From the IMG/VR virus record IMGVR_UViG_3300042542_005394, positions 32,001 to 96,000 of that record: a DNA stretch of 64,000 bases. One strand, given 5' to 3'. Source of the stretch: a virus. This document shows, piece after piece, positions 33,531-53,614 of the stretch. A program made the translations under genes and the position numbers. Each line of letters opens with the position of its first letter. The first letter of the stretch is position 1. The notes beneath the pieces are model-generated. The model was given only the letters and a program-made list of their open reading frames with translations. It was not told the DNA's origin and ran no database searches.

Positions 33531-33823
33531 TATACTATGTAGATATTGATAATACAATCTGTTTGACAGAAAATAGTGACTATGACAACAGTAGTCCATT
33601 ATATGATAGAATCAGAGCAATAAACAACCTATATGACCAAGGACATACAATAGTTTATTGGACAGCGAGAGGGTCTAAAAGTAATAGAGATTGGTCTGAA
33701 TTAACTAAAAATCAGTTGGACTTTTGGGGATGCAGAAGACATAATATATTATTTAATAAACCTCATTATGATCTGTATATAGATGATAAATCAATAAATT
33801 CAGAAAGTTTTTTCAATGAATAA
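33527..33823 (+). CDS. Minimal (capless) HAD phosphatase
   Basis: VDIDNTI, WTARG, KP.YD.YIDDK. Confidence 0.85.
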   Translation: MIYYVDIDNTICLTENSDYDNSSPLYDRIRAINNLYDQGHTIVYWTARGSKSNRDWSELTKNQLDFWGCRRHNILFNKPHYDLYIDDKSINSESFFNE

Positions 33824-34574
33824 AATTGCTGTGATAGGAGAATCTTGTATAGATGAATATGTTTATGGGATATGCGATAGGGTTTGCCCGGAAGCTGCCG
33901 CTCTGTGTTTCAAAACCAGTGAGGAAAAAAGATCTAATATGGGCATGGCACATAATGTATATAACAATATATTAGCAATGAATACGGATTTGGATGTTAC
34001 TCTAATAACAAATAATACTACTATCATTAAAAGAAGATTTATAGACTATAGATATAATACTATAGTATTTAGAGAAGATATCAATGATTCATGTGAGCCT
34101 ATCGATATTAAACAATATGATTTTGACTCATATGATGTTATAGTATTCTCTGACTATTGTAAAGGATTTTTATCTGAAACAAGTATTATTGACATATGTA
34201 AAAAAATTAAAAAATCCTGCTATGTGTTTATAGATACAAAAAAAAAGATTAAAGATTTTATTAGATATGTAAGTTTTTTGAAGATTAATAGCACAGAATT
34301 AAAGCAGAATATTGTTGACATCGAAGATATTAGTAAATATTGTCGGGTAATTGTAACCAAAGGAGAGAATGGAGCTACTCTTTATGAGGGTAGTGTCGTT
34401 AAAAACTATCCAACAAAAAAAATAGAAGTAAGAGATGTTTGTGGAGCAGGGGATACTTTTATGGCTGGTCTGGTGGTTAAGTTCTTGGAAAACAAAGATA
34501 TTGATGAAAGTATCAATTATGCTAATTTGTGTTCTTCCGTAGTGGTAGAAAAATTTGGGGTAACCACACCATGA
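33816..34574 (+). CDS. hldA: HldA/RfaE-I-like heptose-7-phosphate kinase (PfkB family)
   Basis: VIGE.CID.YVYG...R.CPEA, SDY.KG, DVCGAGDTF. Confidence 0.8.
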   Translation: MNKIAVIGESCIDEYVYGICDRVCPEAAALCFKTSEEKRSNMGMAHNVYNNILAMNTDLDVTLITNNTTIIKRRFIDYRYNTIVFREDINDSCEPIDIKQYDFDSYDVIVFSDYCKGFLSETSIIDICKKIKKSCYVFIDTKKKIKDFIRYVSFLKINSTELKQNIVDIEDISKYCRVIVTKGENGATLYEGSVVKNYPTKKIEVRDVCGAGDTFMAGLVVKFLENKDIDESINYANLCSSVVVEKFGVTTP

Positions 34575-39645: not shown

Positions 39646-42600
39646 CTATATTCTTCCTGAACAGGTGGTGAATCTAGGGACTTGGTTTGCGATACCTCCA
39701 ACATCGCTCCAATTAAATATGCCATACGCATTGTATAATGGATATGGATATTCATTCCATTTATCAAGATCTATTTTACCCCAACGAGTATATAGAACTA
39801 TACCCGATGCTACGGGAGAGTCATTAAAATCAGGCCACTCTACTGTATAAGTACCACCACATCCGGTACTATTATTCATAGTCATAAAAGTACTTTGTAT
39901 ATTTCCTCTATGTAAAGAATTAGTGAAGTCCACACTATAACTAACTCCTATATCTGCATCGTTTAAAGAATTATTTATTATAATATATCGATTACCAGTA
40001 TTAGTAGATATATTGCCATAGTTAACAGAGCTATAAAACCAAGCGTCATTATTAATTCTATATATGGCTCTAAATCCAGTGCTGCTGGTCATCGTCATAT
40101 CGTAAGCTTGAATATTACTATAATTTGTAGAAAGAGTAAAGTTAATAGTACGAGCACTTAAAAATCCTCTGTTTTCCGATTGATTAAAAATAATAGAACC
40201 AACGCCGTTAGGATCATTTCCTGTATTAACAGATATGTTACCATAATTGATGGAGTTTGAAAATAAACAACTTAAATTACACAATCCAGAGTTAACAGAA
40301 TTAGTAAAATATACTGATTCGAAAATATTATCTCCCGATGAAGCTGGTCCTTGTATTTTGCCATAGTTTATTGAGTTATAAAAATAAGGATATATAACAT
40401 TTCCATAATTAATAGTATTGCTAAATGAGGATTTTCCTGCAATACTACCGCTGTTGATACATGACTGCGGTGAGGAACCACTGAAGATTGCTGTGGTATG
40501 TTCATTTGCTACCACTGGATAATTTGTAATATTTCCTTTGTTTGTGGAGTTATGCAAAAAATTATATTGATTGTAGCCATATAAATTTGCTAAATTTTGT
40601 GAATAATCTAGAAAGCTTAATTTATTATTTAAAAATCCGGTATAGAAATCAGATAAAAACTGTAATTTATCACTATCTAAATCTCCGTTTGGTCCAGAGT
40701 AATGGGTCAGGTCGTCATTGATTTTTAAAAAAATACCATCTGAATTAAAAATAAAATTATTACCAAAAATAAGATTACCAGAATTAACACTATTTTGACC
40801 AAAACTTACAATGCTATTATATATAGTAGATAGGTTTACTGAATATCCGCTAAAAATGATATTTGCTCTATTAATTCTATCAAATGATCCTGCATTTTTA
40901 GAGAAATTTAAAAATAATGCATTGGTTGCTGCTCCTGTTTTTCTGTTAGAGCTATTATCTTGAAATATTCCACTATTGACTAAGCCTTCATTATATGACT
41001 GATTATAAAAAAACCAAATTAATCCCGAGCTGTTTTTAGAAGCAGATGATGAGTCGATATACGATCCGCTCCCCACAAATTTTTTATTTATCGCACTATT
41101 CTCAAAGTTGGCTTTTAAACAAAATCCTTCGTTCGAAGATTTATCATAAAAATCAAAACTGAAGTTTTCATTGCCACCAGAGCCATAATTAATACTATTG
41201 TCATGGAATTGTGCTACTATTACATTTGGATTATATACTACATCCCCCATTTGATTCACATAATAATGACAATTTATAGATGAATCATTAAAAGTAGCAC
41301 CAACCAGAATAGGATTATCATTACCATATCCGCCAATTAATTGATTATTATTAAAGCTTAAATATATTCCATTTCTAGATTTATCATAAAAAGATGCATA
41401 TTCTCCACGACCATAGTTTTGACTATTGTCATAGTAACTAGCATTTTCTGACCAACCATGATTATAGCTTTTATCGTTAAATCTACCATAAATCAAACCA
41501 GTAAGTCCAGAATTAGCAGAAGTATCGAAAAAAGAAGCCTGGTTAATTACTGCTTGAGCATAACTTAAGTTATAGCTTTGTTTATAAAAAGCTCCTGAAT
41601 ATACAGAACCTGCATTTATTGATGAATAAAAAAAAGCTTGACCAACTATTCTTCCTTCATTTGCGTTAACAGCATTGTTGAACGAAGCTTTGACAACCTG
41701 ATCACCAAAATTAGTTGAGTTAGTAAATTGACAATTAAAACTATCTAAATTTTCTCTTAACCATTTGTACCAATGAATATTTGGGATTGTTTCCTGGTCA
41801 AAAAAATTAGAAACATAATTCCCACTAGTATAGTCTTGCATAAATAAATGAGGAACATCATATTCTATTGCTTCTAGTAAGAAAGGCTGTTTTCTCGATG
41901 GAACACCCTCAATATTATCTTTTTTTCTCCCTATCAAAAAGAAATCTTTGGATATCAATGCTCTTATCTTGCCATAATTCTTACTATCTTGTGTAAACGA
42001 GACATTTTGAGAAGTTAAAGAACTGTTGTTGATACTTATTTGATTAAATGTTATATTTGGTGATTTTATCGGAAAGTAATTGTTAGAATTTTTGAATATT
42101 ATCTCTCCCTCGGTTCTGATAGTTCCATAGTTGCGCGAACCTATATACAATTGATCATCTGAATTAATTGGATTTACAGCAGACAAGAAAGAAACACTGC
42201 ATCCTTTTCCAACATACGGTCCATATTTTTGTTCTATATCTACAATAACAAAAGGATTACCTTCTTCTATTAGTTGTTGTGCTAGGCTCTGAGCACCTTC
42301 AAGGTTTGTGTGCTCGCGAAAAAAATCACCAGAACTTATAATCAATCCGGAATTAATTGAATTAATAAAAGTAATACTATTGTCACCAGAAATAGAACCA
42401 TAATTGATTGATTGACTATCATAAGAATTATATGGAGATGTAAATGTAGCATCAGATAATAATATGCCTCTATTAGTGGCATTTTTAAAAGTAGTTATAC
42501 CAGATATACTACCGTAGTTTGTAGCTATAATACTTTGATTAGTGCTAAAATCATAACCTCCTCGCTGCCACGGTTGTCCTGTGGTTTCAAAAATTACATC

Positions 42601-43500
42601 ACCAATTATAGTTCCTCTATTAATAGAGTTTATGAAGTGTGCATTTCCTATTATGTTTCCCCAGTTTTCTGCTTGATCATAAAAAATACAATTACCAGTT
42701 ACTGTTCCGAAATTATAGGACTTACTGAAAGAGCTTCCTGTTGAAAAAATAGCACTGCCTACAACCGTTCCACGATTACTTGAGCCACGATCAAACAAAA
42801 CATTTCCATAAATAGTTCCATCAAAATAAGACCCATTATAAAAAGAAAAATCACCAACACCAGTAACTTTCTCACGAAAATTACCCAAAATAACATCACA
42901 TTTATTTACTGTAAGGTTTGTGTTAGCTATCCAACTATTACAATTTATAGTTCCGGACAAAGCCGTTATATCACACCCAATAACTGCTGGTTGATCAAAA
43001 GCAAAACCACCACATATACAGAAGCTATTAGTATTTATTTTACAATTAATTATTGAGCCCTTGCCCCCGAAAGTCATTTCTGTGGGACTGCCACTACAAT
43101 TAAAATTAAATTGATCAGTATCTATAACCAATGAAGCCATAAATACATTTCCGGTTGATAATATGGTTTCAGCTTCGTAATAGCAAAATTCTCCAGGCTC
43201 CCAGTGAGTAAGAGTAACCCCCGGACCAACCGTAAGTGTCGAAGTTTTTAAGTTTTCGCAAGTAAATTTTTTTTGCCCGAATGTATATGAATAATTATCA
43301 TTTGTAGTAGAATCAATTTCTACATTAATATTAATGCTTTCTATAGATGGAATTTTTGTAAAACATGTAATATCGTCGATTTTTAAATTTATACTTTCTA
43401 CTACAATGTCATTAACTTCATTTATTGGTATAGTTTTATGTGGTTTGCTAAATTCAGCATTTTTGTACCACTTACTAGAATCACACCAGTTATTAGACAT
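39646..43500 (-). CDS. 1284-aa Asn/Ser/Gly-rich repeat (beta-solenoid) protein, putative fibre/spike
   Basis: Many degenerate ~15-16 aa units of form xFx(N/D)(x)SxNxGxI. Confidence 0.7.
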   Translation of the reverse strand: MSNNWCDSSKWYKNAEFSKPHKTIPINEVNDIVVESINLKIDDITCFTKIPSIESININVEIDSTTNDNYSYTFGQKKFTCENLKTSTLTVGPGVTLTHWEPGEFCYYEAETILSTGNVFMASLVIDTDQFNFNCSGSPTEMTFGGKGSIINCKINTNSFCICGGFAFDQPAVIGCDITALSGTINCNSWIANTNLTVNKCDVILGNFREKVTGVGDFSFYNGSYFDGTIYGNVLFDRGSSNRGTVVGSAIFSTGSSFSKSYNFGTVTGNCIFYDQAENWGNIIGNAHFINSINRGTIIGDVIFETTGQPWQRGGYDFSTNQSIIATNYGSISGITTFKNATNRGILLSDATFTSPYNSYDSQSINYGSISGDNSITFINSINSGLIISSGDFFREHTNLEGAQSLAQQLIEEGNPFVIVDIEQKYGPYVGKGCSVSFLSAVNPINSDDQLYIGSRNYGTIRTEGEIIFKNSNNYFPIKSPNITFNQISINNSSLTSQNVSFTQDSKNYGKIRALISKDFFLIGRKKDNIEGVPSRKQPFLLEAIEYDVPHLFMQDYTSGNYVSNFFDQETIPNIHWYKWLRENLDSFNCQFTNSTNFGDQVVKASFNNAVNANEGRIVGQAFFYSSINAGSVYSGAFYKQSYNLSYAQAVINQASFFDTSANSGLTGLIYGRFNDKSYNHGWSENASYYDNSQNYGRGEYASFYDKSRNGIYLSFNNNQLIGGYGNDNPILVGATFNDSSINCHYYVNQMGDVVYNPNVIVAQFHDNSINYGSGGNENFSFDFYDKSSNEGFCLKANFENSAINKKFVGSGSYIDSSSASKNSSGLIWFFYNQSYNEGLVNSGIFQDNSSNRKTGAATNALFLNFSKNAGSFDRINRANIIFSGYSVNLSTIYNSIVSFGQNSVNSGNLIFGNNFIFNSDGIFLKINDDLTHYSGPNGDLDSDKLQFLSDFYTGFLNNKLSFLDYSQNLANLYGYNQYNFLHNSTNKGNITNYPVVANEHTTAIFSGSSPQSCINSGSIAGKSSFSNTINYGNVIYPYFYNSINYGKIQGPASSGDNIFESVYFTNSVNSGLCNLSCLFSNSINYGNISVNTGNDPNGVGSIIFNQSENRGFLSARTINFTLSTNYSNIQAYDMTMTSSTGFRAIYRINNDAWFYSSVNYGNISTNTGNRYIIINNSLNDADIGVSYSVDFTNSLHRGNIQSTFMTMNNSTGCGGTYTVEWPDFNDSPVASGIVLYTRWGKIDLDKWNEYPYPLYNAYGIFNWSDVGGIANQVPRFTTCSGRI

Positions 43501-43505
43501 TGTTT

Positions 43506-45326
43506 TTACTCATCTAAATATAAAGTTGCACTATCCAATAATTTACGATTGTTGATTGGATAAAATTGTTTATAACTTAGATTTCTTTTAGGAAAACCTT
43601 TAGTTGTAGATAACGCAAATAATAAACCAAATGCAGACTGATTTTTCCCGCAATAATAGGGAATACAATTACTACTACCAGAGCAACATTCTCCTGTTGG
43701 AGGATTAGCATTACAGCCCTCATATTGTTTTCTAATAAATTCATCTACACAAGGGCCAGTATTTGGTCCATTATTTAGAGCATTAATAAGTCTATACAAC
43801 AGAGCATCAGAATTAGAAAGAAATCCACTAACAGCTAATAAAGAAGGTAAGTCAGGCGAAAGAATGATATTGTTCTCTTGCAAATCTAGTCCTATCCTAG
43901 CTCCAGCAGAAGCAACATTAGATGGACAAAATTTACTTCTACAACCCTTAAAGCTTGGACTGTGATTAAATTTAGTCATTCCTTTAAGATGACTTTCTGT
44001 AACCAAAAAAGATCCTGGAGGAATAGGTCCCCAGCTAGGCTCTCCTCCACTATTCCAGTCCCCCCAACTATTTGCAATCAAATACACACACTCAGGATAC
44101 TCTATTTTTGTATCATCATAGCCTATAATAGAAAAAGTATGATACCAAATTCTATCTGGATAAGCTACGCCGCTAGAATCTCGTGAATTAGGAAATCCTA
44201 CATTAGTCATCCAGACAACACCATATCCATTAAATAGTAAGTCTTTTATTCTATTCATTCTAGTATTATCGTCTCCGCCAATAAAAGATATTGTTTTAAA
44301 TCTTTCTATGGCTGTATGATCGTTAACATAATCCGTGGTACCGGGCATTATTTCTGCAGCATTTTTATAGTTATAGTTATTTTTACTTTGAAAATATTTT
44401 AAAAATATATCATCAGTACACGCATAAAAATTAGGACCACTATTATTAATAAAATTACCATATCCTCCATAACTTTTCCTTTTTAGGATTCCAATATGTT
44501 TTAGAGTGGAAAAGTCTATATCCATCATCATTCGTAGTTCGATAATAGTATCTAGGTTAAGTTTGCTATTAGAATTTTTTTGTATGTATGAAAAATATAA
44601 TCTATTAGTTTCTGGCGCCCCGCAGCACATTTCTTTATTTTCAACACAGGTTTTAGCCTGACAACATAAACTACCCGGCTCTTCTGGATTACAAGTTTCA
44701 CAACTTACACATTTAGGAGTAGTTTCAGGAGGAAAAACTTTGCAATAAAAGTCGGCTCCTGCCGCTCCTTTCTCTGGATTCTTTATACAGTTAAAGAAGT
44801 ACTCTGTGTCTCCTTCTCTATAAGAGCATCCTGGTGCCTGCTGATTTTGAGCTATTTCCTCCGTTACAATATCTGGTCCTAACATCATTAAACAGTCCGG
44901 TAATGAGTTGTTACCAAAATGCTCAAGATACTCAGCAGACATGCGACTTTCCCATTTATGATATTCTCTAGTATTCTCAATATCGCATGCTCTGGTAATG
45001 TCGCAAGCATTTCTTACAGCATGAGATGTGCCGCTTCTTGTTGTTGGTTGAATTTCTGTAAAAGCTTCTGCATCTATACGGCTTAAAAATTTATATGGTA
45101 TTCCTAACTTTCCTGCTCCCGTATCTTTTATCCCTAAAGGATTTTGCTCAGAAGGTACTATATCAACATAAGGAGCGCCTTCTATACATGGATACTTTAG
45201 ATGTCTCAGAAATCGTATTAAACGAGGTAAATCATACGGAGTACCATTAGCTTCATACATGATTATGGAGTCATAATAACACGGCTCCAGAGTGTACTGC
45301 AAATATAATTCCTGGGGAGATAGCAT
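43506..45326 (-). CDS. Papain-like (C1) peptidase homolog lacking the catalytic Cys, with Cys-rich insertions
   Basis: QPTTRSGTSHA (Cys to Gly), WYHTFSIIGYDD, LIANSWG.W..GG.P.WGPIP.GSF. Confidence 0.75.
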   Translation of the reverse strand: MLSPQELYLQYTLEPCYYDSIIMYEANGTPYDLPRLIRFLRHLKYPCIEGAPYVDIVPSEQNPLGIKDTGAGKLGIPYKFLSRIDAEAFTEIQPTTRSGTSHAVRNACDITRACDIENTREYHKWESRMSAEYLEHFGNNSLPDCLMMLGPDIVTEEIAQNQQAPGCSYREGDTEYFFNCIKNPEKGAAGADFYCKVFPPETTPKCVSCETCNPEEPGSLCCQAKTCVENKEMCCGAPETNRLYFSYIQKNSNSKLNLDTIIELRMMMDIDFSTLKHIGILKRKSYGGYGNFINNSGPNFYACTDDIFLKYFQSKNNYNYKNAAEIMPGTTDYVNDHTAIERFKTISFIGGDDNTRMNRIKDLLFNGYGVVWMTNVGFPNSRDSSGVAYPDRIWYHTFSIIGYDDTKIEYPECVYLIANSWGDWNSGGEPSWGPIPPGSFLVTESHLKGMTKFNHSPSFKGCRSKFCPSNVASAGARIGLDLQENNIILSPDLPSLLAVSGFLSNSDALLYRLINALNNGPNTGPCVDEFIRKQYEGCNANPPTGECCSGSSNCIPYYCGKNQSAFGLLFALSTTKGFPKRNLSYKQFYPINNRKLLDSATLYLDE

Positions 45327-45329
45327 AAT

Positions 45330-45578
45330 TTATTTGCTGGTTAATTTATTATATAAAACAAGAGTTAGCACACCACCAACTGTACCAGCAAATAGTCCAG
45401 CAGGAGATAGAGTTTCATATTTACCAATCATATATAAAATAGCCCCACCCATGTATGATCCTGCTACTCCAAGAGCGACCGTTTTAACAAAACCAAAATT
45501 TTCTTCGCCAGGAACTAAACTTTTAGCAATTGATCCCACGAATAAGCCATAAACACACCATACTAATAGACTAAACAT
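45330..45578 (-). CDS. GlsB/YeaQ/YmgE (transglycosylase-associated) membrane protein
   Basis: W...GL.VG.IAK..VPG...G...T..LGVAGS..GG. Confidence 0.85.
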   Translation of the reverse strand: MFSLLVWCVYGLFVGSIAKSLVPGEENFGFVKTVALGVAGSYMGGAILYMIGKYETLSPAGLFAGTVGGVLTLVLYNKLTSK

Positions 45579-45969
45579 TGGCAGCCTCCACTAAGGTTTG
45601 AATATCATCATCCGTGAGAGTTTCTCCTGTATTCAGCAGGGCCGATAGTATGCTTAGCCCATATTTTTCATAATCTTCTCTGTTCATTTCTTTGCGTAAA
45701 ACTTTTTTGATTCTCATTTTGGTAAACCAACCACGATTTCTAGAAAATGTTTTTATTTGTTCTCCATATAATATATATTTATCTTCCGGAGAGCAACTAG
45801 ATGATAACTTATTTTTATTACATTCTTGTAGTATTCTGACGCAAGTGAGTATAATGCTAATTATCATCAAAATAGTAACAATAGCAAAGCCATATTCATC
45901 ATTTCTTTGCACTTGAGATTTTTCAAGAATTTTAATTGCTATATTTTTAAGTTTTTCATTACTATCCAT
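45571..45969 (-). CDS. Membrane protein, hypothetical
   Basis: One TM segment FAIVTILMIISIILTCV; start placed at MDSNEK. Confidence 0.65.
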   Translation of the reverse strand: MDSNEKLKNIAIKILEKSQVQRNDEYGFAIVTILMIISIILTCVRILQECNKNKLSSSCSPEDKYILYGEQIKTFSRNRGWFTKMRIKKVLRKEMNREDYEKYGLSILSALLNTGETLTDDDIQTLVEAANV

Positions 45970-45973
45970 TAGT

Positions 45974-46324
45974 TTACCTTTTGTTGTTTTTAGGTAAGGG
46001 ACAAACACCATTTGGACAATCTTTACGAGGAGGAGTTGGCGCTGGTGTGACGGACTTAATTGGACCAATAGAAATAGTTCCTGAACCTTCATCCGGTTCG
46101 CAATAATTACAATCTATTTTTTTAATACCATCACCACTCATATACCAACCCTTACCCTTGCATACAGGACAGTCTTTGCGCTTGTGTTTAATTGTGATCT
46201 CGTCTGAGTGCTTAGCTTTTATAATACCTCCAGCTATGACCACTGGGGCGGTTGTAGAGCCATAGTATGAGTCTTGAAATGAGAGAAAGCCTATAGCTAA
46301 TATTCCACACATTATTTTATTCAT
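45974..46324 (-). CDS. Exported Cys-motif protein
   Basis: Signal-like N terminus, CPVCKGKG...C..C, C-terminal CPNGVCP. Confidence 0.7.
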   Translation of the reverse strand: MNKIMCGILAIGFLSFQDSYYGSTTAPVVIAGGIIKAKHSDEITIKHKRKDCPVCKGKGWYMSGDGIKKIDCNYCEPDEGSGTISIGPIKSVTPAPTPPRKDCPNGVCPLPKNNKR

Positions 46325-46325
46325 A

Positions 46326-46547
46326 TTACTTCCTCCATGGAAGAGGGATAACTTTATCTATACTATCTATTACTTTCTTAAGTGGTCTTGGTCTGTTAGG
46401 TTTGCTTGGAGAAGGAGTAACTTCTGGCTTTGGTTTGGACGGACCATATTTGTCAAAAAGAGCAGCTAATCTTTCGATTACGCTAATAATGAGATTGATT
46501 AATGCTCTGATTTGCAATCTTTCTCTTAAATTCATAAACCACCTCAT
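46326..46547 (-). CDS. Small basic Pro-rich protein
   Basis: Amphipathic N-terminal helix, PKPKP linker. Confidence 0.55.
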   Translation of the reverse strand: MRWFMNLRERLQIRALINLIISVIERLAALFDKYGPSKPKPEVTPSPSKPNRPRPLKKVIDSIDKVIPLPWRK

Positions 46548-46570
46548 AGAGTATTAATGCTACATATATT

Positions 46571-46579
46571 AATACACCA
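46571..46579 (-). promoter_or_regulatory. YGGTGTAT motif
   Basis: tGGTGTATta in the intergenic gap upstream of 46547. Confidence 0.55.
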
Positions 46580-46595
46580 CAAAATAGCCTATATT

Positions 46596-48614
46596 TTAGA
46601 GATAGGTATCAAAGCCGTAATCTGGGAGTTTTTGTAGTGGAAACCCGTCGAATCCACTAAAAGCATACGATCCATTTTGAGAAAGCATACCTTCAGCAAC
46701 ATCTGCGTGAATAAGAAACGATCCATCTGGAATTGGTCCCCATTCTGGATGACCACCATCGTTCCATTTGCCCCAGCTATTTTGAACTAGAAATGCTGGT
46801 TCTCCTTGGGTATCATCACATGCTATCCATGCCATGCAATTATGAGATGCTACTCCGTCTACTATATAACTGTGATTGTTTTTAACTTCTAAATTATATA
46901 CTTTACCTATATATTTATTAGATTTAATGTTTCTAATAGGATTATATAAATAATTACTATCGTTTTTTAGTTTGGATACAGCATTCTTCAAATTCCAGGC
47001 TAGAGTATAAGAGCTATTATGAGAATTATAAGCAGTATCCCCATGTTTTTGCTCAAATATAGTTGGCTTATAGTCTAAATTAATTAATATATTTCTTAAT
47101 TGATAAATTAATGGTTTATTGCTCATACTGATATATTTGATTTCTTTTCTATAGAAACCATCACCACAAAAAATACCATCTATAATACTTTCTACATCCC
47201 ACCCTTCGGTTAATAAAAATTCTGGTATTTGTCGTTCTGTAGAATAATGACCAAACCAGCTATCAAATGAACGAGCTAATACGGAAGAATCACAGTACAC
47301 TCGGATATAGGTTGTGTGTTCTTTAATTCTGATTTTAAGACCCAATATATCAAAAGCTTTTTTTAGTCTAGCTATATAATCTTTTTCTGTAATAGAAAAG
47401 GTAAAACAAATTTTATGATTTTTTACACTATTTCCATCGGCAATATATAGACCAAACATCCAAGCAACATCGTTATTAGGATGATTTAGTTGTTCCGGAA
47501 TATTTTTGGTTTTATTACTAATACCTATATATGGTAATCCTGCGAATGGTTTTGATTGAAATTTTGTTTTTGGAGTAACTAGCCAGTCCGTATCTATAAT
47601 ATCTTTTGCTTCCACCCACATTAATTTTCTTTTTTCAACTTTTTGTTTTTGCTTTTTGATAACTAATACCCCGCCATCGGACTCTTCTATGTCTTCATAT
47701 TCTTTAATATCTCTTATATTTCTAAAAATTAATATAGGATGCTCTGCTGTTACATTAAAAGAAGGTAATCCCCAAGCTCTAACAGATACCACTTCTCCAT
47801 CATAGTCTTTTTCAAAAACATGACTTACAGAATCGACTTCTCCGATATGATTAAATAGTTTATCTCCTACGTAAAAACTATTGATAGTTTTATTTCCATC
47901 GGGGGTAAAAACTAAAGAATTTGACATATAACAATGAGCCCAACTACCAGATACTTTTGCGAATCCCTTTTTATCTCTAGTATTACTAAATCCATAACTA
48001 GAGCATACGGCTAACCCATAACCATTAGCAAGAGCATCACGAGCTTCTTCTACTGTTCGTATTAGTGAAGCTGTCTTGATCTGGTGATCATTAGAAAGGT
48101 CTAATACCTTATCAGGAAGACCTCTGCCACCCCAACCCGCTCCTAAATTACCATTATATTTACTAAAGTCCACAAAACCATAATTCTTTCTTACCACAAT
48201 ACCACCAACCTTACTAACAAATTCAGCTGCTCTGGCACAACTCATGCCCTGTCCACTAAATCCCCTATATCCATAGATAGCCTCTGTTGCACCCCTTGCT
48301 GTCCAATCCTCTCTCTCGTTATGTACATCTATTTCTACTGCTCTTGTAACATCACAAGCGTTTCGTGTTCCATGACTAACACAATCCCCAGTGGTTTGTC
48401 TTTCGTTATAAGGATTTTTATCAAATTTTAACACACTCTTATATGGTGTTGATAGTTTACCCTTACCACTACCACTAATTTTTTTACTAGCATCACCGAA
48501 TAGTGGATATTTGGAAGTTTCCATCAAATGATCATATACGTGCTGTTCAAATAAACAACCACTAAAACCATTACGATAATTATCATATAATTCTTTTGGT
48601 GTCATTCTTGCCAT
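46596..48614 (-). CDS. Papain-like (C1) cysteine peptidase interrupted by an intein
   Basis: Q..GDCVSHG, WAH|C, VQNSWG; spliced product 307 aa. Confidence 0.85.
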   Translation of the reverse strand: MARMTPKELYDNYRNGFSGCLFEQHVYDHLMETSKYPLFGDASKKISGSGKGKLSTPYKSVLKFDKNPYNERQTTGDCVSHGTRNACDVTRAVEIDVHNEREDWTARGATEAIYGYRGFSGQGMSCARAAEFVSKVGGIVVRKNYGFVDFSKYNGNLGAGWGGRGLPDKVLDLSNDHQIKTASLIRTVEEARDALANGYGLAVCSSYGFSNTRDKKGFAKVSGSWAHCYMSNSLVFTPDGNKTINSFYVGDKLFNHIGEVDSVSHVFEKDYDGEVVSVRAWGLPSFNVTAEHPILIFRNIRDIKEYEDIEESDGGVLVIKKQKQKVEKRKLMWVEAKDIIDTDWLVTPKTKFQSKPFAGLPYIGISNKTKNIPEQLNHPNNDVAWMFGLYIADGNSVKNHKICFTFSITEKDYIARLKKAFDILGLKIRIKEHTTYIRVYCDSSVLARSFDSWFGHYSTERQIPEFLLTEGWDVESIIDGIFCGDGFYRKEIKYISMSNKPLIYQLRNILINLDYKPTIFEQKHGDTAYNSHNSSYTLAWNLKNAVSKLKNDSNYLYNPIRNIKSNKYIGKVYNLEVKNNHSYIVDGVASHNCMAWIACDDTQGEPAFLVQNSWGKWNDGGHPEWGPIPDGSFLIHADVAEGMLSQNGSYAFSGFDGFPLQKLPDYGFDTYL
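46839..47933 (-). mobile_element. 365-aa intein with LAGLIDADG homing endonuclease
   Basis: C1 in CYMSNSLV, block B VTAEHPI, GLYIADG and DGIFCGDG motifs, VYNLEV..NHSY, terminal HN followed by C+1. Confidence 0.93.
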
Positions 48615-49102
48615 TATTTACTAGCCTCATTATAAGCCCAAGCTAATGCATTGAAACCATCTACAGCCTTAGCTCTTAGTTCTGTTGAAAGATTGATATT
48701 ATCGTCGCCAACTGCTGCGAACATGACCTCTTTAGCTTCTTTGGCTAAATTTGGATATTTGCCTTTCACATCCAACTTTAACATAGGACCAGCAATACTA
48801 TTAGCTTGGCGAATCTCATCAGTATTTTTAATTACAACATCTTCGCCATCTAATTTAACCAATCGTCCTAGATCAAGACTCAAGTCTCGCAACCTCTTAA
48901 AATCATTTTTTGAACCACCCGAACCTTTAAGCAAAGTTACTACATCATTTGCTTCTTTTTTAAGAGTTTCGTCTGTTGGAGCAGTTAGCTCCATCACATC
49001 TACATTAGCTGGGGAAACTGGCACAAATCTAGATGGGTCTAACTTAGTTAACCCTACCAATATTAGTAATCCAGCAACAACTAGAATTATATTCTTATTC
49101 AT
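48614..49102 (-). CDS. Exported or membrane-anchored helical protein
   Basis: N-terminal signal/anchor MNKNIILVVAGLLILVGL. Confidence 0.65.
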   Translation of the reverse strand: MNKNIILVVAGLLILVGLTKLDPSRFVPVSPANVDVMELTAPTDETLKKEANDVVTLLKGSGGSKNDFKRLRDLSLDLGRLVKLDGEDVVIKNTDEIRQANSIAGPMLKLDVKGKYPNLAKEAKEVMFAAVGDDNINLSTELRAKAVDGFNALAWAYNEASK

Positions 49103-49476
49103 TTGACAGCATCCTTGTTACAAACATTAGGACTTAAGAAAGGAAACATTTGATCAGCCACCTTAACTGCTTCAGAACATCCGCTCTGAACAGCAAGATC
49201 GCGAGTTTGTTTCCAGCTTACTACCAGCTTAAAAAAAGTGTCTTCTGTATCATTCTTTTTAGACGGCAAAACTACTGGATCAATAGTTGGAACATTAACA
49301 ACCGGTAAGGCTGATCCACTCTTAATCTTCTCGGTTAGTGATAAAAGAAACTTTTGAACCGGACTAAGTTTATCCTTAAACAATACCCATAATACTAATC
49401 CCACACCAGCATAAAGAGCCAGATCCGTTGGGCCTAACTTGCTGCTAAATTCTTGAAAACTTTCTGTAAAATTCAT
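49099..49476 (-). CDS. Single-TM membrane protein
   Basis: LALYAGVGLVLWVLF. Confidence 0.65.
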   Translation of the reverse strand: MNFTESFQEFSSKLGPTDLALYAGVGLVLWVLFKDKLSPVQKFLLSLTEKIKSGSALPVVNVPTIDPVVLPSKKNDTEDTFFKLVVSWKQTRDLAVQSGCSEAVKVADQMFPFLSPNVCNKDAVK

Positions 49477-49487
49477 CTTAGCCTCTC

Positions 49488-49925
49488 TTATTTATCTGAA
49501 ACTCTGGGTTTAACATCAACAAAAGTATTTACCCTTACACTAGGATCAACAAATACGCCCGTTTGTCTAAATGTTGTGACCATAGCATCAATGGTAGAAC
49601 TTACTAGTATCATCAAAAACGATTTGAGATACTTATGTATAATAGGTTCAACCAGAGATGGAACAAAGGGAATATCTATCACAATGAAAACACTATCATA
49701 AAACTTAGATAATAGATCCATAGCAATAACTTTTTTATCTTTACCAGTTAGGTCTGTCGCACTATTCTCTATGATCTGAACTGTGCTAGCTACTGCTAGT
49801 TGCAATATTTTCCACGCTTGAGATATAGCAACAGCTTTTACTTCTTTAAGTGATTGTTTGGCTTGATCTATTAGCTTATCAACTTCTGATAGTATAAGAG
49901 ATTGTATTTCTACAGAAACCGACAT
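49488..49925 (-). CDS. Amphipathic/hydrophobic protein, holin-associated-like
   Basis: G.DKK..A motif reminiscent of LL-H-type holins; tentative. Confidence 0.45.
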   Translation of the reverse strand: MSVSVEIQSLILSEVDKLIDQAKQSLKEVKAVAISQAWKILQLAVASTVQIIENSATDLTGKDKKVIAMDLLSKFYDSVFIVIDIPFVPSLVEPIIHKYLKSFLMILVSSTIDAMVTTFRQTGVFVDPSVRVNTFVDVKPRVSDK

Positions 49926-49958
49926 AGTTTTATCCTTTATATAAGAGCTACTATAAGT

Positions 49959-49967
49959 AGTACACCA
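49959..49967 (-). promoter_or_regulatory. GGTGTA motif (variant GGTGTAC)
   Basis: tGGTGTActa, 35 nt upstream of 49925. Confidence 0.5.
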
Positions 49968-49974
49968 AAAACGG

Positions 49975-50325
49975 CTATTTTTTAATCTGTGGTTTTTTCT
50001 TGGTTTTTCTGGTTACTGGCTTCTTTTTCTGTTTGGGAACCGTTATCGTTTCGGTTTTTGGAGATTCTGGGTGATTGTCTTTTTCTGAACTCCACCAAAT
50101 TTTTTTAATTTCTGTTCGTCCTTTAATATAGCGAAATAGTACCGCTAATTGACCTATAATCAAAATAAAGGCCTCAACTCCTCTACTAGTTTCTGCTATT
50201 AGATCTTCTTTTTGACCATGATCATCCAATAATCCCACTAGGTATAGACCACTAAAAATAAAACTTACTACGGTTAACCAGAATTCACTAGTTCTATAGC
50301 CGGGTTTTACCATATTAAACTCCAA
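49975..50325 (-). CDS. Holin-like two-TM protein
   Basis: KPGYRTSEFW N terminus, two TM segments, highly basic C-terminal tail. Confidence 0.6.
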   Translation of the reverse strand: MEFNMVKPGYRTSEFWLTVVSFIFSGLYLVGLLDDHGQKEDLIAETSRGVEAFILIIGQLAVLFRYIKGRTEIKKIWWSSEKDNHPESPKTETITVPKQKKKPVTRKTKKKPQIKK

Positions 50326-50355: not shown

Positions 50356-50364
50356 TATACACCG
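50356..50364 (-). promoter_or_regulatory. YGGTGTAT motif
   Basis: cGGTGTATat, 32 nt upstream of 50325. Confidence 0.55.
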
Positions 50365-50371
50365 ATTAGCA

Positions 50372-51010
50372 CTATACGTTTTGGTCAACAAATCCGAAGC
50401 AAACTGTGCAGTAATATTCGGCAGCTCCGTAATTAAACGTCACACTACTCATTGTTCCGTCGATTCGTATAATGTTAAAACCTTCTTCTCCAACAAATTG
50501 AGTATATTGTGTAGAATTTACTTGGTTTAGGTATATTGTTTGTGTGTTGGGAACAATACCGTTTGACGACCAAATAGGAGTAAAAGGTTTTGGATCACCA
50601 TTCCCATCAAGCACTTGTACGGGAACTGCTCCGCCCGCTTGACCAACACTTGCAAATGCAACCAAAGCATCCGTGATTGGTTGGCTAAATACAGCAGTAA
50701 ATACTCCCTGCTCTGTGTTTGCAATTTGATTACCGCTAGTTGGTACTCCATATTCTGCGGGAAAGAGTTCGGACGCAACCATTCCAGTATGCAAAAACAT
50801 GCCACCACCGTTCTGGGTAATATTGACTGTTATATTATTTTGACCAATTCCTGATGCTGTAGATTCCGTAATAGAATTCATTGTCATCCATTGAAAACCA
50901 GAACTTCCAAAAACAGGAAACACTTGTTCTGTTCCCAAAAATATTTTAGAAACATTATTATTACCTAATTTAATAGCAGATGTTACAGAATTATTTAATA
51001 ATATAGACAT
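50372..51010 (-). CDS. Fibre-tip/adaptor protein
   Basis: N-terminal IKLG...VSKIFLG..QVFP motif, then a beta-rich domain. Confidence 0.55.
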   Translation of the reverse strand: MSILLNNSVTSAIKLGNNNVSKIFLGTEQVFPVFGSSGFQWMTMNSITESTASGIGQNNITVNITQNGGGMFLHTGMVASELFPAEYGVPTSGNQIANTEQGVFTAVFSQPITDALVAFASVGQAGGAVPVQVLDGNGDPKPFTPIWSSNGIVPNTQTIYLNQVNSTQYTQFVGEEGFNIIRIDGTMSSVTFNYGAAEYYCTVCFGFVDQNV

Positions 51011-52084
51011 TTATGAGATAACATACAAAGTAGTAGAATTTTTAGTAACAAGAGCGTCGTAATTTGCTTGAGATATACTAACTATATTAGTAATATTAAT
51101 TGAATTTGGAACTAGTCCAGTATTACTTGGTACTCCAGCAGAAGTTTGAGTGGTGTTATCTGAGAATGTGATACTACCACTAGCTGGTAATGTTAATGCC
51201 CCATCTGTGCCAAAAGTCCAGAGATTGGTATTTGAATCGGTGCCGATCACAACATCTCCACCATCTTTTTCAATCTTAACATATTGATCATCATCACCCA
51301 AATAAATATCAACCGTCGAAGGATCTCCTGCCACAAGATGTACATGACTATGTTCTGAACTAGATATTCCATTATTAGTTACAGTAATAAACTGACCAAT
51401 GGGCATAGCATTTTCTTCAAAATCATAATATAAAGCTGGATCATTTTGAGTCTGTTCATTAGTGGATCTTGTGCCATCAACACTTGTTAGTGTAAGAGTA
51501 AATTCAGAAATAGTACTATTAGCTGGTATTGTCCAAGTAATACTTTCTGCCTCTGGACCGGTTGTACTTACGAAAGTTAGTTTACCAGTTAGTGCTCGAC
51601 CCAATGATTGTGGGGTAACTCCAGTACCAGAGATTGTATAGTTTACTGTTCCAAAATAAGACCAGGTTTGTAAAGTAACTATAATAGTAATAGGATTACC
51701 ATATTCAATATAATTACTAGAACTAATTGCCCAAATAGCTGCGGTTGGACGAATTACTAAACTCTGTCCAGAAGCTGCTGTTGGAGGCATTAAAGATACT
51801 GTATTATTTGTTTCACTGAATATGCTGCCGCTGGGTAATGTTAAAGAACCATTTCCAGTAAGTATAACTTCTTTATCGTCTTTAATTAATCTGTCTGATG
51901 AAGAACCTACGACTCCTATAGCACTAGTGAGTTCGCTTAAAGTTATTTTTTTAGTAACTCCGCTAACTAATGGACTGTCCATGAATAAAAATATATCATC
52001 GCTACTTAGTGATCCACTACCTGTTGGAAATTCGTTTATTCTTTTTATACTCATATTAGCCACCAACCAATGTTTGATCATCAA
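51011..52084 (-). CDS. Tail-fibre-like protein
   Basis: KRINEFP...TKKITL.EL N terminus, W.FGTDG.LTLP..G.I.F.D.T.Q, C-terminal ISQANYDAL..K...TLYVI. Confidence 0.65.
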   Translation of the reverse strand: MMIKHWLVANMSIKRINEFPTGSGSLSSDDIFLFMDSPLVSGVTKKITLSELTSAIGVVGSSSDRLIKDDKEVILTGNGSLTLPSGSIFSETNNTVSLMPPTAASGQSLVIRPTAAIWAISSSNYIEYGNPITIIVTLQTWSYFGTVNYTISGTGVTPQSLGRALTGKLTFVSTTGPEAESITWTIPANSTISEFTLTLTSVDGTRSTNEQTQNDPALYYDFEENAMPIGQFITVTNNGISSSEHSHVHLVAGDPSTVDIYLGDDDQYVKIEKDGGDVVIGTDSNTNLWTFGTDGALTLPASGSITFSDNTTQTSAGVPSNTGLVPNSINITNIVSISQANYDALVTKNSTTLYVIS

Positions 52085-52277
52085 CTAATTGTACAAAAAT
52101 ACCGTTATAGAATCTATTACCATATTTACTCTGAATAGAACTTATAGCTGGAGTATTTTTAACATTGGTATTATTAGTATTATGTGTTCCGGTAAAAGTT
52201 GTTGATGTAATCGTTGTACCATTTTTAATAGGTTGACTGTTTTTACTTTTAGCAATATCTGTGAATGGTCTGCTCAT
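52056..52277 (-). CDS. Small hypothetical protein
   Basis: 73 aa, GGAG RBS; weakly similar in style to the N terminus of the 53652-54203 protein. Confidence 0.55.
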   Translation of the reverse strand: MSRPFTDIAKSKNSQPIKNGTTITSTTFTGTHNTNNTNVKNTPAISSIQSKYGNRFYNGIFVQLVDDQTLVGG

Positions 52278-52295
52278 TTTTTATCTCCATTAATA

Positions 52296-52766
52296 TTATG
52301 ATATTTTTTCATAGCTAGCAAAGCCGGAAAGACGATTACTCACATTAGAGATTAACTTAATACTTTGACCCTCTGTAAGATATATCGAAGAAGTTTGTCC
52401 TATAACAAGATCAACTGTTTGACCAGCACTAACAGGAGTATATTTAGCAATATAACTAAGTATGTCGCTTCCATCATCAATATAAGCTGTAATTGTGGCA
52501 CTATTAAGACCATCTATATTTGTAACATACAGGTTATTAATTTTTAATACTTTATTATTCTCACAAGAAACAATAACCTGAGCCTGGGCGTCAAGAACAC
52601 TGTCGAATAACTTTGTTGTACCTCGATATACTTTTTTAATCAGATTTGTTCCATTGTATATCGCTATTCCATTATTTGATCCATACTTAATATTACTATC
52701 CGGAATATTAGAAATATGGGCATTTTCGCCATATACATTAAGTAAGTTTTTTAAATTAATATTCAT
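52296..52766 (-). CDS. Fibre-tip/adaptor protein
   Basis: IYNG...IKKVYRG..KLF motif, then V.NIDG.NSA.I...IA....V......L......IYL.EG..I domain. Confidence 0.55.
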   Translation of the reverse strand: MNINLKNLLNVYGENAHISNIPDSNIKYGSNNGIAIYNGTNLIKKVYRGTTKLFDSVLDAQAQVIVSCENNKVLKINNLYVTNIDGLNSATITAYIDDGSDILSYIAKYTPVSAGQTVDLVIGQTSSIYLTEGQSIKLISNVSNRLSGFASYEKIS

Positions 52767-52767
52767 A

Positions 52768-53178
52768 TTAGGTTACAAAATAAATAGTGTTGGAATCTTT
52801 AACAGAAAGGGCGGTATAGCTTGCTTCACTAATTACAACAATATTATTAACAGTTGAGGCACCGTTGATAGTTGTAACATCGCTTTTAACTAATCCAGTA
52901 GAACTTACAGTGAATGTCTTATTGGAAGAAGCAACATTAATATTTGCGCTTCCAACAACATTTACAACTGAGAGTAAACCGCTAACAGAACTATTGAAAT
53001 CGGTTATACTACTAGTTTGATGAGTATGACTTGTTAAGCTTACTCCAGTACTGTTAACATATAAGCCTTGAGTAAAATTACCACTGCCAATAACATCAAT
53101 AGAACCAGTACCAGCTATATTAAAGTTATTTAAATCTAGATTAGCTCCTAGTTTCGGATTTGTTTCATCTATAAGCAT
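52768..53178 (-). CDS. Short tail-fibre-like protein
   Basis: D..P.LG.NLDLN..NI.G.G, H.H..S.ITDF, C-terminal ISEASYTAL..KD..TIYFV. Confidence 0.65.
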   Translation of the reverse strand: MLIDETNPKLGANLDLNNFNIAGTGSIDVIGSGNFTQGLYVNSTGVSLTSHTHQTSSITDFNSSVSGLLSVVNVVGSANINVASSNKTFTVSSTGLVKSDVTTINGASTVNNIVVISEASYTALSVKDSNTIYFVT

Positions 53179-53236: not shown

Positions 53237-53560
53237 TTAGCTTTTTTCAATACGATTTTCTATTGCTTCTAGTGTTTTACTCAACATTGCTATCTGTACT
53301 TTTAATTCATTCATCACTTCTGTGTTGCGTTGCAAAGCATTAGCAAAAGCTGCTTGATTTTCTTTATTATTATTTAAACGCTCCATAATAAATTGTCTAT
53401 CTTGAACATATGGAGAATGAGTTTCTATTAGAGACAATACTTCTGCTTTGGTAATCATATGTCTTACTATAGTAGCCCAAAAAGTAATTAGTGTTACAAT
53501 AACGCCAACGCTAGTGGTTGCTATAATTTGCCATAAATGAGCCAAGTTTGAATCTGTCAT
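53237..53560 (-). CDS. TM + coiled-coil protein
   Basis: Start at MTDSNL after an AGGAGAG RBS; N-terminal TM, C-terminal heptads. Confidence 0.65.
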   Translation of the reverse strand: MTDSNLAHLWQIIATTSVGVIVTLITFWATIVRHMITKAEVLSLIETHSPYVQDRQFIMERLNNNKENQAAFANALQRNTEVMNELKVQIAMLSKTLEAIENRIEKS

Positions 53561-53573
53561 ATTAGTCTCTCCT

Positions 53574-53614
53574 AAAAAAATGAGCCAACGACACATAAGC
53601 ATCATTGGCTCATC
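53574..53614 (-). terminator. Intrinsic terminator
   Basis: GATGAGCCAATGATGC-TTAT-GTGTCGTTGGCTCAT followed by a T run. Confidence 0.8.

Follow-up and report, generated by a model that had tools for sequence, protein, structure and literature searches.

Known lysis enzymes and the module at 45330-50325

As far as we know, endolysins are thought to be peptidoglycan hydrolases almost without exception, and to come from a limited set of families. In phage lambda the endolysin belongs to a holin-endolysin-spanin cassette (S-R-Rz/Rz1), and the signal-arrest-release (SAR) endolysins are represented by R21 of phage 21 and by Lyz of phage P1, the latter being activated by a thiol-disulfide change. Here we present the analysis of a module of nine minus-strand genes at 45330-50325 of a 64,000-nucleotide stretch of viral DNA, which is bases 32001-96000 of one 113,002-bp viral contig (IMG/VR record IMGVR_UViG_3300042542_005394; its genome is denoted G000 below) and is called the window hereafter. 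The module contains small membrane proteins, an exported protein and a protease of the papain family (C1). All nine open reading frames (ORFs) listed in a preliminary description of this DNA are found in place; the conserved start of one transmembrane (TM) protein is 45969 and not 46092. We propose that the module is expressed late and serves a jumbo phage as a cassette for lysis or envelope disruption, with the C1 protease as its effector, a reading to which we give about an even chance. The novelty would lie in a cassette of lysis type whose enzyme is without precedent and has a partner anchored in the membrane.

The module is like the lambda-type cassettes in being compact, in having a small protein with two TM segments and a charged tail, an enzyme without signal peptide and further membrane or exported proteins, in its probably late expression, and in being the sole such cluster in its genome. 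It is unlike them in having a C1 protease in the place of a muramidase, transglycosylase, amidase or M15 peptidase, and nine genes against three or four. Moreover, no outer-membrane spanin with a lipobox is found in the window, and the holin assignments rest on features and sub-threshold matches. Compared with the SAR endolysins, the enzyme of distant homologues likewise has an N-terminal Gly/Ala-rich TM segment, and the adjoining thiol-redox partner recalls P1 Lyz; however, the anchor in the window is a separate protein with a four-helix domain, the enzyme class differs, and the window protease itself is not of the SAR kind.

As for the enzyme, it shares with known C1 peptidases (xylellain 3OIS, cathepsin B, papain and caricain) the fold, the Gln-Cys-His-Asn arrangement and the motifs HxxxxxG.DD and NSWG. 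On the other hand, the identity is only about 13-16%, which is below Pfam detection, the conserved disulfide cysteines are missing, neither an I29 propeptide nor a signal peptide is recognised, there is a membrane-anchored partner, and inteins occur in the family at both catalytic residues. Another virus-encoded C1 protease is V-CATH of baculoviruses, a cathepsin made as a proenzyme in the secretory pathway and acting with a chitinase. Late breakdown of host structures, by which the progeny is freed, is the feature of V-CATH, but this is a protein of eukaryotic viruses and, apart from the common C1 fold, no homology was found. Phages also use Cys-His peptidases of the papain-like superfamily, CHAP and NlpC/P60 (for example the CHAP domain of LysK), on the peptide links of the wall (PMC4126393). 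These are different families with smaller folds, and for the module protease an action on peptidoglycan is a candidate one. Searches with CHAP and NLPC_P60 give no match in this genome or in five complete relatives, and no phage lysin of the C1 family was found described in the literature searched.

The protease, its inteins and its membrane-anchored partner

On the whole, profile and fold searches both bear out the label of C1 protease given in the preliminary description, with the qualification that the enzyme is a remote member of the family. No Pfam or PHROGs entry matches the exteins, the intein-free homologues or the N-terminally extended homologues, and the gathering score of Peptidase_C1 (PF00112) is not reached. 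In contrast, a family profile of 48 diverse members matches caricain (5e-5), papaya protease omega and xylellain, spanning both lobes. The AlphaFold model of the protease has a predicted local distance difference test (pLDDT) score of 93.8 and a predicted template modelling (pTM) score of 0.93, and Foldseek with this model returns xylellain (3OIS, 9e-9), cathepsin B, Der p 1 and pro-forms of papain at a probability of 1.0. All 48 homologues have Cys78 and His228; Gln73, Ser249 and Trp250 are at least 90% conserved, and Asp77 is nearly invariant as well; the exteins in the window hold all residues of the catalytic set, namely Gln, Cys, His and the Asn-Ser-Trp segment. In the ESM Atlas the protease falls among almost purely viral clusters, one of which is auto-named 'Peptidase C1A', and PF00112 is found on 14% of one neighbouring cluster. 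A fold search of BFVD also returns Peptidase C1 entries, including baculovirus V-CATH, together with C1-like proteins of uncultured phages titled 'Peptidoglycan binding-like' or 'N-acetylmuramidase (fragment)'. These, known by their titles alone, are a lead that wall-directed lysins may incorporate C1-like domains, and they speak for the lysis reading. The 672-amino-acid (aa) gene product is, by profile and by model, a papain-family (C1, clan CA) protease with predicted activity. A match of the N-extein to the spike gp138 of phage phi92 (phmmer E 0.027) covers just a short low-complexity stretch and is dismissed as chance.

The family is large and almost entirely viral. Intein-free homologues of 308 aa are abundant, with 1513 matches, the best 120 of these 1513 being about 80-90% identical, and a search of representatives gives 1125 clusters at 50% identity. 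Searched by tblastn against the 50,697 records of cultured phages, the intein-free protease finds no match even at E 1, and the full precursor finds matches to the intein part only; megablast of the region also gives no match. Across related loci the median identity of the protease is 81-84%, against 50-62% for the neighbouring genes, and it ranks second in conservation among the proteins shared by the genome of the window and a complete relative of 151,782 bp (G005, loci L084-L091).

The gene is interrupted by an intein that directly follows the catalytic His, and the protease's own Cys on the far side of the intein acts as the +1 nucleophile. The N-extein ends in ...SGSWAH and the C-extein starts with CMAWIACDD...NSWG. 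The junctions read AH|CYMS... and ...SHN|CMAW, and the intein-free 308-aa homologues are continuous there (...WGH|CMAW...). Pfam recognises Intein_splicing (2.9e-13), LAGLIDADG_3 (1.2e-6) and Hom_end (3.2e-4) within the insert. Since the intein parts the catalytic His from the Asn-Ser-Trp segment, splicing must precede protease activity, and as read from the gene it is predicted to be required before the enzyme can work. There is also a second intein site in the family, between Asp77 and the catalytic Cys78 (QTTGD|C...HN|CVSH), occupied in homologues P0140, P0141, P0144, P0125, P0126 and P0132. Because the insertion is directly before it, the catalytic Cys78 itself is the +1 splice residue at that site. 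Homologue P0132 carries inteins at both catalytic residues.

The 162-aa protein encoded directly upstream is linked to the protease in every distant locus examined. In distant homologues (P0146, P0153, P0166-P0168, P0171, P0172, P0175 and others) it forms the N-terminal part of one polypeptide with the protease, and therefore the 162-aa protein is a membrane-anchored partner of the enzyme. A model of one fused form has a TM helix at residues 4-21, a four-helix bundle at 56-153, a disordered linker at 155-206 and then the protease domain, and in the fused homologues the N-terminal TM segment is Gly/Ala-rich. Charge counts by the positive-inside rule leave the orientation of the anchor undecided. 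A region query for the anchor domain returns close intein-bearing relatives only, and an alignment query, which is weak evidence, shows the domain fused to no other enzyme among the longer proteins. Where the two are not fused (L095 and L097-L100), protease and anchor lie within a few genes of each other, accompanied by small proteins with two TM segments (72 and 58 aa). A homologue of the 132-aa TM protein adjoins the protease in L099.

The distant loci also show which other partners recur. Directly after the protease in L097 (9417-10034) and L099 (8994-9596) there is a lipoprotein with a lipobox, having a Zn-ribbon-like CxxC...CxxC segment and a thioredoxin domain with WCGPC, and it matches the 116-aa exported protein of the window through the CxxC...CxxC segment. 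This lipobox thioredoxin protein may be a periplasmic redox partner of a thiol enzyme. In L097 ribonucleotide reductase, PhoH and RecA come next. Locus L101 has, in order, a 2-TM protein, a fused anchor-protease with an intein and a 328-aa lipoprotein, which by analogy would be the classic order of holin, tethered enzyme and lipoprotein.

Lysis reading of the module and its rivals

The features of the module and of its surroundings are collected in Table 1. On the whole, 80 related viral loci were compared, with the window proteins searched by tblastn in addition to searches with hidden Markov models, and the order of the nine genes (2-TM, 145 aa, 125 aa, 162 aa, protease, 73 aa, 116 aa, 132 aa and YeaQ) is retained in 73-80 of them, the 73-aa gene being detected in fewer. 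A synteny check proposed earlier is thereby answered, showing a conserved order within the module and variable flanks: fibre-like genes at 50372-53178 on one side and a gene pair at 39646-45326 on the other are variable inserts. In many loci a deoxycytidine monophosphate (dCMP) deaminase gene follows directly after the YeaQ gene.

Table 1. Coordinates of the module, its protease parts, the promoter-like motifs and the adjoining accessory genes (window numbering; aa, amino acids; nt, nucleotides; TM, transmembrane)
Feature	Position	Strand	Remark
GGTGTAT promoter-like motif	50357..50363	-	38 nt upstream of 2-TM gene (start 50325); same-place copy in G005
2-TM holin-like protein, 116 aa, Lys-rich C-terminal tail	49975..50325	-	in 74/80 loci
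GGTGTAC motif variant	49960..49966	-	41 nt upstream of 145-aa gene (start 49925)
145-aa protein, one hydrophobic segment, weak LL-H holin similarity	49488..49925	-	in 76/80 loci
125-aa protein, N-terminal hydrophobic anchor, C-terminal domain with two conserved Cys	49099..49476	-	in 78/80 loci
162-aa membrane-anchored four-helix-bundle protease partner, N-terminal anchor	48614..49102	-	stop overlaps protease start
Protease precursor, 672 aa (N-extein + intein + C-extein)	46596..48614	-
Protease N-extein, residues 1-227	47934..48614	-	Gln73, catalytic Cys78, catalytic His as last residue
Intein with LAGLIDADG homing endonuclease, residues 228-592	46839..47933	-	Cys1, TxxH block, SHN end, +1 Cys
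Protease C-extein	46596..46838	-	NSWG motif (Asn of papain triad) and stop codon
GGTGTAT motif	46572..46578	-	31 nt upstream of 73-aa gene (start 46547)
73-aa basic Pro-rich protein, N-terminal amphipathic or hydrophobic helix	46326..46547	-	detected by tblastn in 24/80 loci
116-aa exported protein, signal-like N-terminus	45974..46324	-	CxxCxGxG...CxxC motif (CPVCKGKG...CNYC)
132-aa protein, one strong central TM segment	45571..45969	-	hydropathy scan
82-aa GlsB/YeaQ/YmgE (Transgly_assoc) membrane protein, two TM segments	45330..45578	-
Accessory pseudo-protease: 606-aa protease paralogue, catalytic Cys -> Gly, Cys-rich insertions	43506..45326	-	absent from most related loci
Accessory 1284-aa Asn-rich repeat protein	39646..43500	-	travels with 606-aa paralogue as variable cassette

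Among the small proteins, the first one has the layout of a class II holin: a short chain with TM segments at residues 15-33 and 49-67 (hydropathy scan) and a Lys-rich, charged tail at the C-terminus, features that recur in 55 distinct homologous sequences. Beyond this layout the holin assignments made earlier are not supported, every match to a holin family lying below threshold. The 145-aa protein matches Phage_holin_6_1 at E 0.04, as do 6 of its 17 homologues (best 0.024); in a pool of 134 module homologues, in which the gene family was not told apart, seven match Phage_holin_2_3 (best 0.023) and two match the 'holin' phrog_6918 (5.8e-4), all below the curated thresholds. Only the YeaQ-type protein among the module genes reaches a curated Pfam threshold, with 26.5 bits against a cut-off of 25.3 for Transgly_assoc (PF04226), and 17 of 17 homologues match (best 2e-9). 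This GlsB/YeaQ/YmgE family is placed in TCDB as putative holin family 1.E.43, its function not being established (PMC7593918). For most of the small proteins Pfam and PHROGs give no significant family match. There is no other cluster of small TM proteins in G000 or G005, which makes the module unique in both.

The three GGTGTA motifs reported earlier are present; each lies between genes, with 31-41 nt separating it from the start codon downstream, and the copies probably split the module into three transcription units. In the window GGTGTAT occurs 11 times against 5.7 expected, 10 of the 11 being on the minus strand. In G005 all 20 copies of GGTGTA[TC] are oriented with the local genes, and 12 of them lie in intergenic gaps, which are rare. 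The minus-strand copies of G005 precede the same three units of the module as in the window, and those on the plus strand precede presumed virion genes: before a 371-aa gene, after the tape measure, and before 2439-aa and 886-aa genes. Followed by an A/T-rich stretch, GGTGTAT looks like a single-box promoter (L084-L091 of G005; 27977-60259 of the window), plausibly read by a sigma-like protein of the phage itself. As the motif is common to the module and to presumed virion genes, late expression of the module is suggested.

The next question is whether another lysis system is encoded. The preliminary description found no lysozyme, amidase, M15 or M23 enzyme in the window, and this holds and extends to whole genomes. 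We searched, in six frames, this genome and five complete relatives with 17 Pfam families of peptidoglycan hydrolases or peptidoglycan-binding domains (Phage_lysozyme, SLT, Amidase_2, Amidase_3, Peptidase_M15_3, Peptidase_M15_4, VanY, M23, GH19, GH25, GH108, NLPC_P60, CHAP, Glucosaminidase, Hydrolase_2, Lysozyme_like and PG_binding_1), and none was found above threshold. The protease itself matches no known peptidoglycan-hydrolase family. A match to Peptidase_M15_4 inside the polymerase gene (E 0.015, 13 bits) is regarded as chance. In G005, 44 ORFs (those of the plus-strand virion block, of another block on that strand and a few small genes nearby) match 12 Pfam families with no wall hydrolase among them, and for the other 75 ORFs there is no lysin among the 25 families listed of 57. 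Fragments of distant relatives also show no Phage_lysozyme, Amidase_2 or SLT, which is weak evidence.

As to the genomes behind these searches, the five relatives (152-238 kb) are all rated 100% complete by CheckV, and one has terminal repeats. The protease is single-copy in each large genome, so the records of 200-238 kb are true jumbo genomes and not dimers. The contig of the window has about 33% G+C and a completeness rating of 82%; its start falls within plus-strand giant tail genes (ORFs of 5082, 1461, 1680 and 2385 aa), and the head genes are therefore absent from it. Its remainder is a long minus-strand array with a split DnaE polymerase, DnaB, primase, ribonucleotide reductase, glycosyltransferases and dCMP deaminase. 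The phages carrying the module are a widespread and abundant clade of large freshwater (jumbo) phages.

Based on these results, a lysis cassette might work as follows. Three units driven by GGTGTAT would yield the membrane proteins (the 2-TM holin-like, the LL-H-like, the YeaQ-type and several single-pass ones) and the protease precursor, from which the intein would splice out to free the active enzyme. The mature 308-aa protease would then work with the membrane-anchored four-helix partner. It might reach the envelope once the inner membrane has been made permeable by the holin-like proteins, or by a SAR-like tether in the fused forms, and there would cut peptide links, which could be those of envelope or tether proteins or the peptide stems of peptidoglycan. 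Meanwhile, the adjoining exported CxxC/thioredoxin protein would keep or make the catalytic thiol active. In this scheme we infer the function of the holin-like proteins, the compartment and the substrate of the protease, and lysis itself.

Several points weigh against a lysis cassette. Topology is the chief difficulty: neither a signal peptide nor an N-terminal TM segment is present in the window protease, and without the former the enzyme might sit at the cytoplasmic face. To our knowledge, C1 peptidases are not known to cut peptidoglycan. The holin-family matches are all sub-threshold, and in the small proteins of the window no conserved lipobox Cys of a spanin is found, lipobox proteins occurring in distant relatives only. 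A divergent muramidase missed by Pfam could hide among the many unnamed ORFs. As judged from the alignments, the conservation of the protease is unusually high for a lysin. Finally, the module sits among nucleotide-metabolism genes, and nrdB is also preceded by GGTGTAT.

With these difficulties in view, a serious rival, though one we think rather unlikely, is that the membrane-tethered protease is no lysis device and acts from the cytoplasmic face to remodel membrane or envelope proteins of the host. Its role would be superinfection exclusion through destruction of a receptor or transporter, removal of membrane-bound host defence, or recycling of host protein. The fusion of anchor and protease, which locates the enzyme at the membrane, agrees with such a role, and a protease without signal peptide may be placed at the cytoplasmic face. 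The very high conservation of the protease suggests a conserved protein substrate, the module lies beside glycosyltransferase, heptose-pathway and nucleotide-metabolism genes, and with an exported trypsin-like protease and an S8 subtilase also encoded, proteolysis looks like a wider theme of these phages. However, this explanation leaves lysis without a recognisable endolysin unexplained, given the negative searches with 17 families; the promoter motif common to presumed virion genes points to late expression, and small 2-TM proteins and a lipoprotein accompany the protease across distant relatives.

The same promoter motif would also suit a morphogenetic protease, processing at the membrane the giant tail or tape-measure polyproteins or the head proteins of the phage, with the small membrane proteins as an assembly platform. 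Tail proteins of 2300-5100 aa are indeed encoded by these phages, variable fibre-like genes with the Phage_tail_C domain flank the module, and high conservation is typical of core morphogenetic genes. We nevertheless consider this improbable, and the same goes for the membrane-associated virion-maturation module offered as an alternative in the preliminary description, as the module consists mostly of membrane proteins and is located among nucleotide-metabolism genes. It is far from the virion block and on the opposite strand, with dCMP deaminase and ribonucleotide reductase following in close and distant relatives alike, and the fibre genes are variable inserts outside the conserved core. Besides, no role in tailed-phage assembly is known for membrane anchors, for an exported CxxC/thioredoxin lipoprotein or for a YeaQ protein, and a ClpP-like protease encoded elsewhere could serve head maturation. 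That unrelated small genes merely stand beside the protease by chance is hardly credible: most of the small proteins lack a significant family match, but the order is conserved while both flanks vary, start and stop codons of neighbouring genes overlap, anchor and protease are fused in distant relatives, and the same kinds of partners recur there.

Neighbouring genes, host and meaning of the module

Besides the module, the surroundings contain several genes of note. The 606-aa paralogue next to the YeaQ gene retains the His and the Asn-Ser-Trp segment and is rich in Cys both in an insert of about 195 aa and in its tail; it may serve for binding rather than as an enzyme. The cassette of this paralogue is found in only one of the five complete relatives searched (G001, locus L005). 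On the other side, the fibre-like minus-strand genes at 50372-53178, far from the main tail block, are hypervariable between relatives, and two of them (51011-52084 and 52768-53178) terminate in a 'tail tip' domain, Phage_tail_C. At this position G005 carries a gene of 1183 aa, and matches to Laminin_G_3 and Mtd_N also came from that genome. Just upstream of the variable fibre genes, a conserved 122-aa protein (53237-53605) with an N-terminal TM segment and a C-terminal coiled-coil-like region resembles an inner-membrane spanin component, and it may share the functional neighbourhood of the module.

Outside the window, at 97502-99180 of the genome (L083:2102-3780), genes for an S8 subtilase (7e-57) and a trypsin-like S1 protease (7e-19) adjoin each other, the latter with a clear signal peptide and a GGTGTAT motif upstream. 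Thus the phage encodes three proteases of different classes (C1, S8 and S1). In G005, the ORFs of the virion block and the neighbouring plus-strand ORFs include alginate lyase, FGE-sulfatase, arylsulfotransferase, Laminin_G_3 and subtilase/P-domain modules, and Pfam recognised no terminase, portal or capsid family; elsewhere in that genome there are a Volactin-type actin homologue (4.9e-61) and a ClpP-like protease.

A bacterial host is indicated, as DnaE, RecA, RuvB and a sigma-70 region 4 protein are encoded. An archaeal host was considered for the missing peptidoglycan enzymes and the Volactin-like gene, and is rejected on account of DnaE, DnaB, RecA, RuvB and the sigma-70 region 4 protein. 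The heptose-pathway kinase-like gene at 33816-34571 is closest, with 42% identity, to Ferruginibacter and other Bacteroidota, and a 2.6-kb fragment is binned into an alphaproteobacterial metagenome-assembled genome (MAG), each being a weak hint. A single-protein scan of genome contigs returned two MAG contigs only, both probably phage DNA. The envelope disruption proposed in the preliminary description thus fares unequally in its two parts: there is a conserved functional block around a papain-fold enzyme and no canonical endolysin was found with the 17 families searched, but nothing supports the planctomycete host suggested there, and one gene hints weakly at Bacteroidota. Three proteases and no wall glycosidase may still keep alive the idea of a protein-rich envelope.

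If the lysis reading is carried to the whole clade, these freshwater jumbo phages would have lost their peptidoglycan hydrolases and would lyse their hosts by a papain-family protease, and phage lysins would thereby gain a new class. Restraint of the enzyme would come from its four-helix partner, from the exported thiol-redox protein and from obligatory splicing, and its targets would be envelope proteins or peptide stems. We hold this wider claim only tentatively and regard it as somewhat doubtful. Whatever its function, the protease family offers a natural example of an enzyme with intein insertions at both of its catalytic residues. Should the protease be the lysin, it would bring a new enzyme class into phage lysis, would point to a host envelope with a proteinaceous weak point, and would represent a new type of enzybiotic, that is, a lytic enzyme usable against bacteria.

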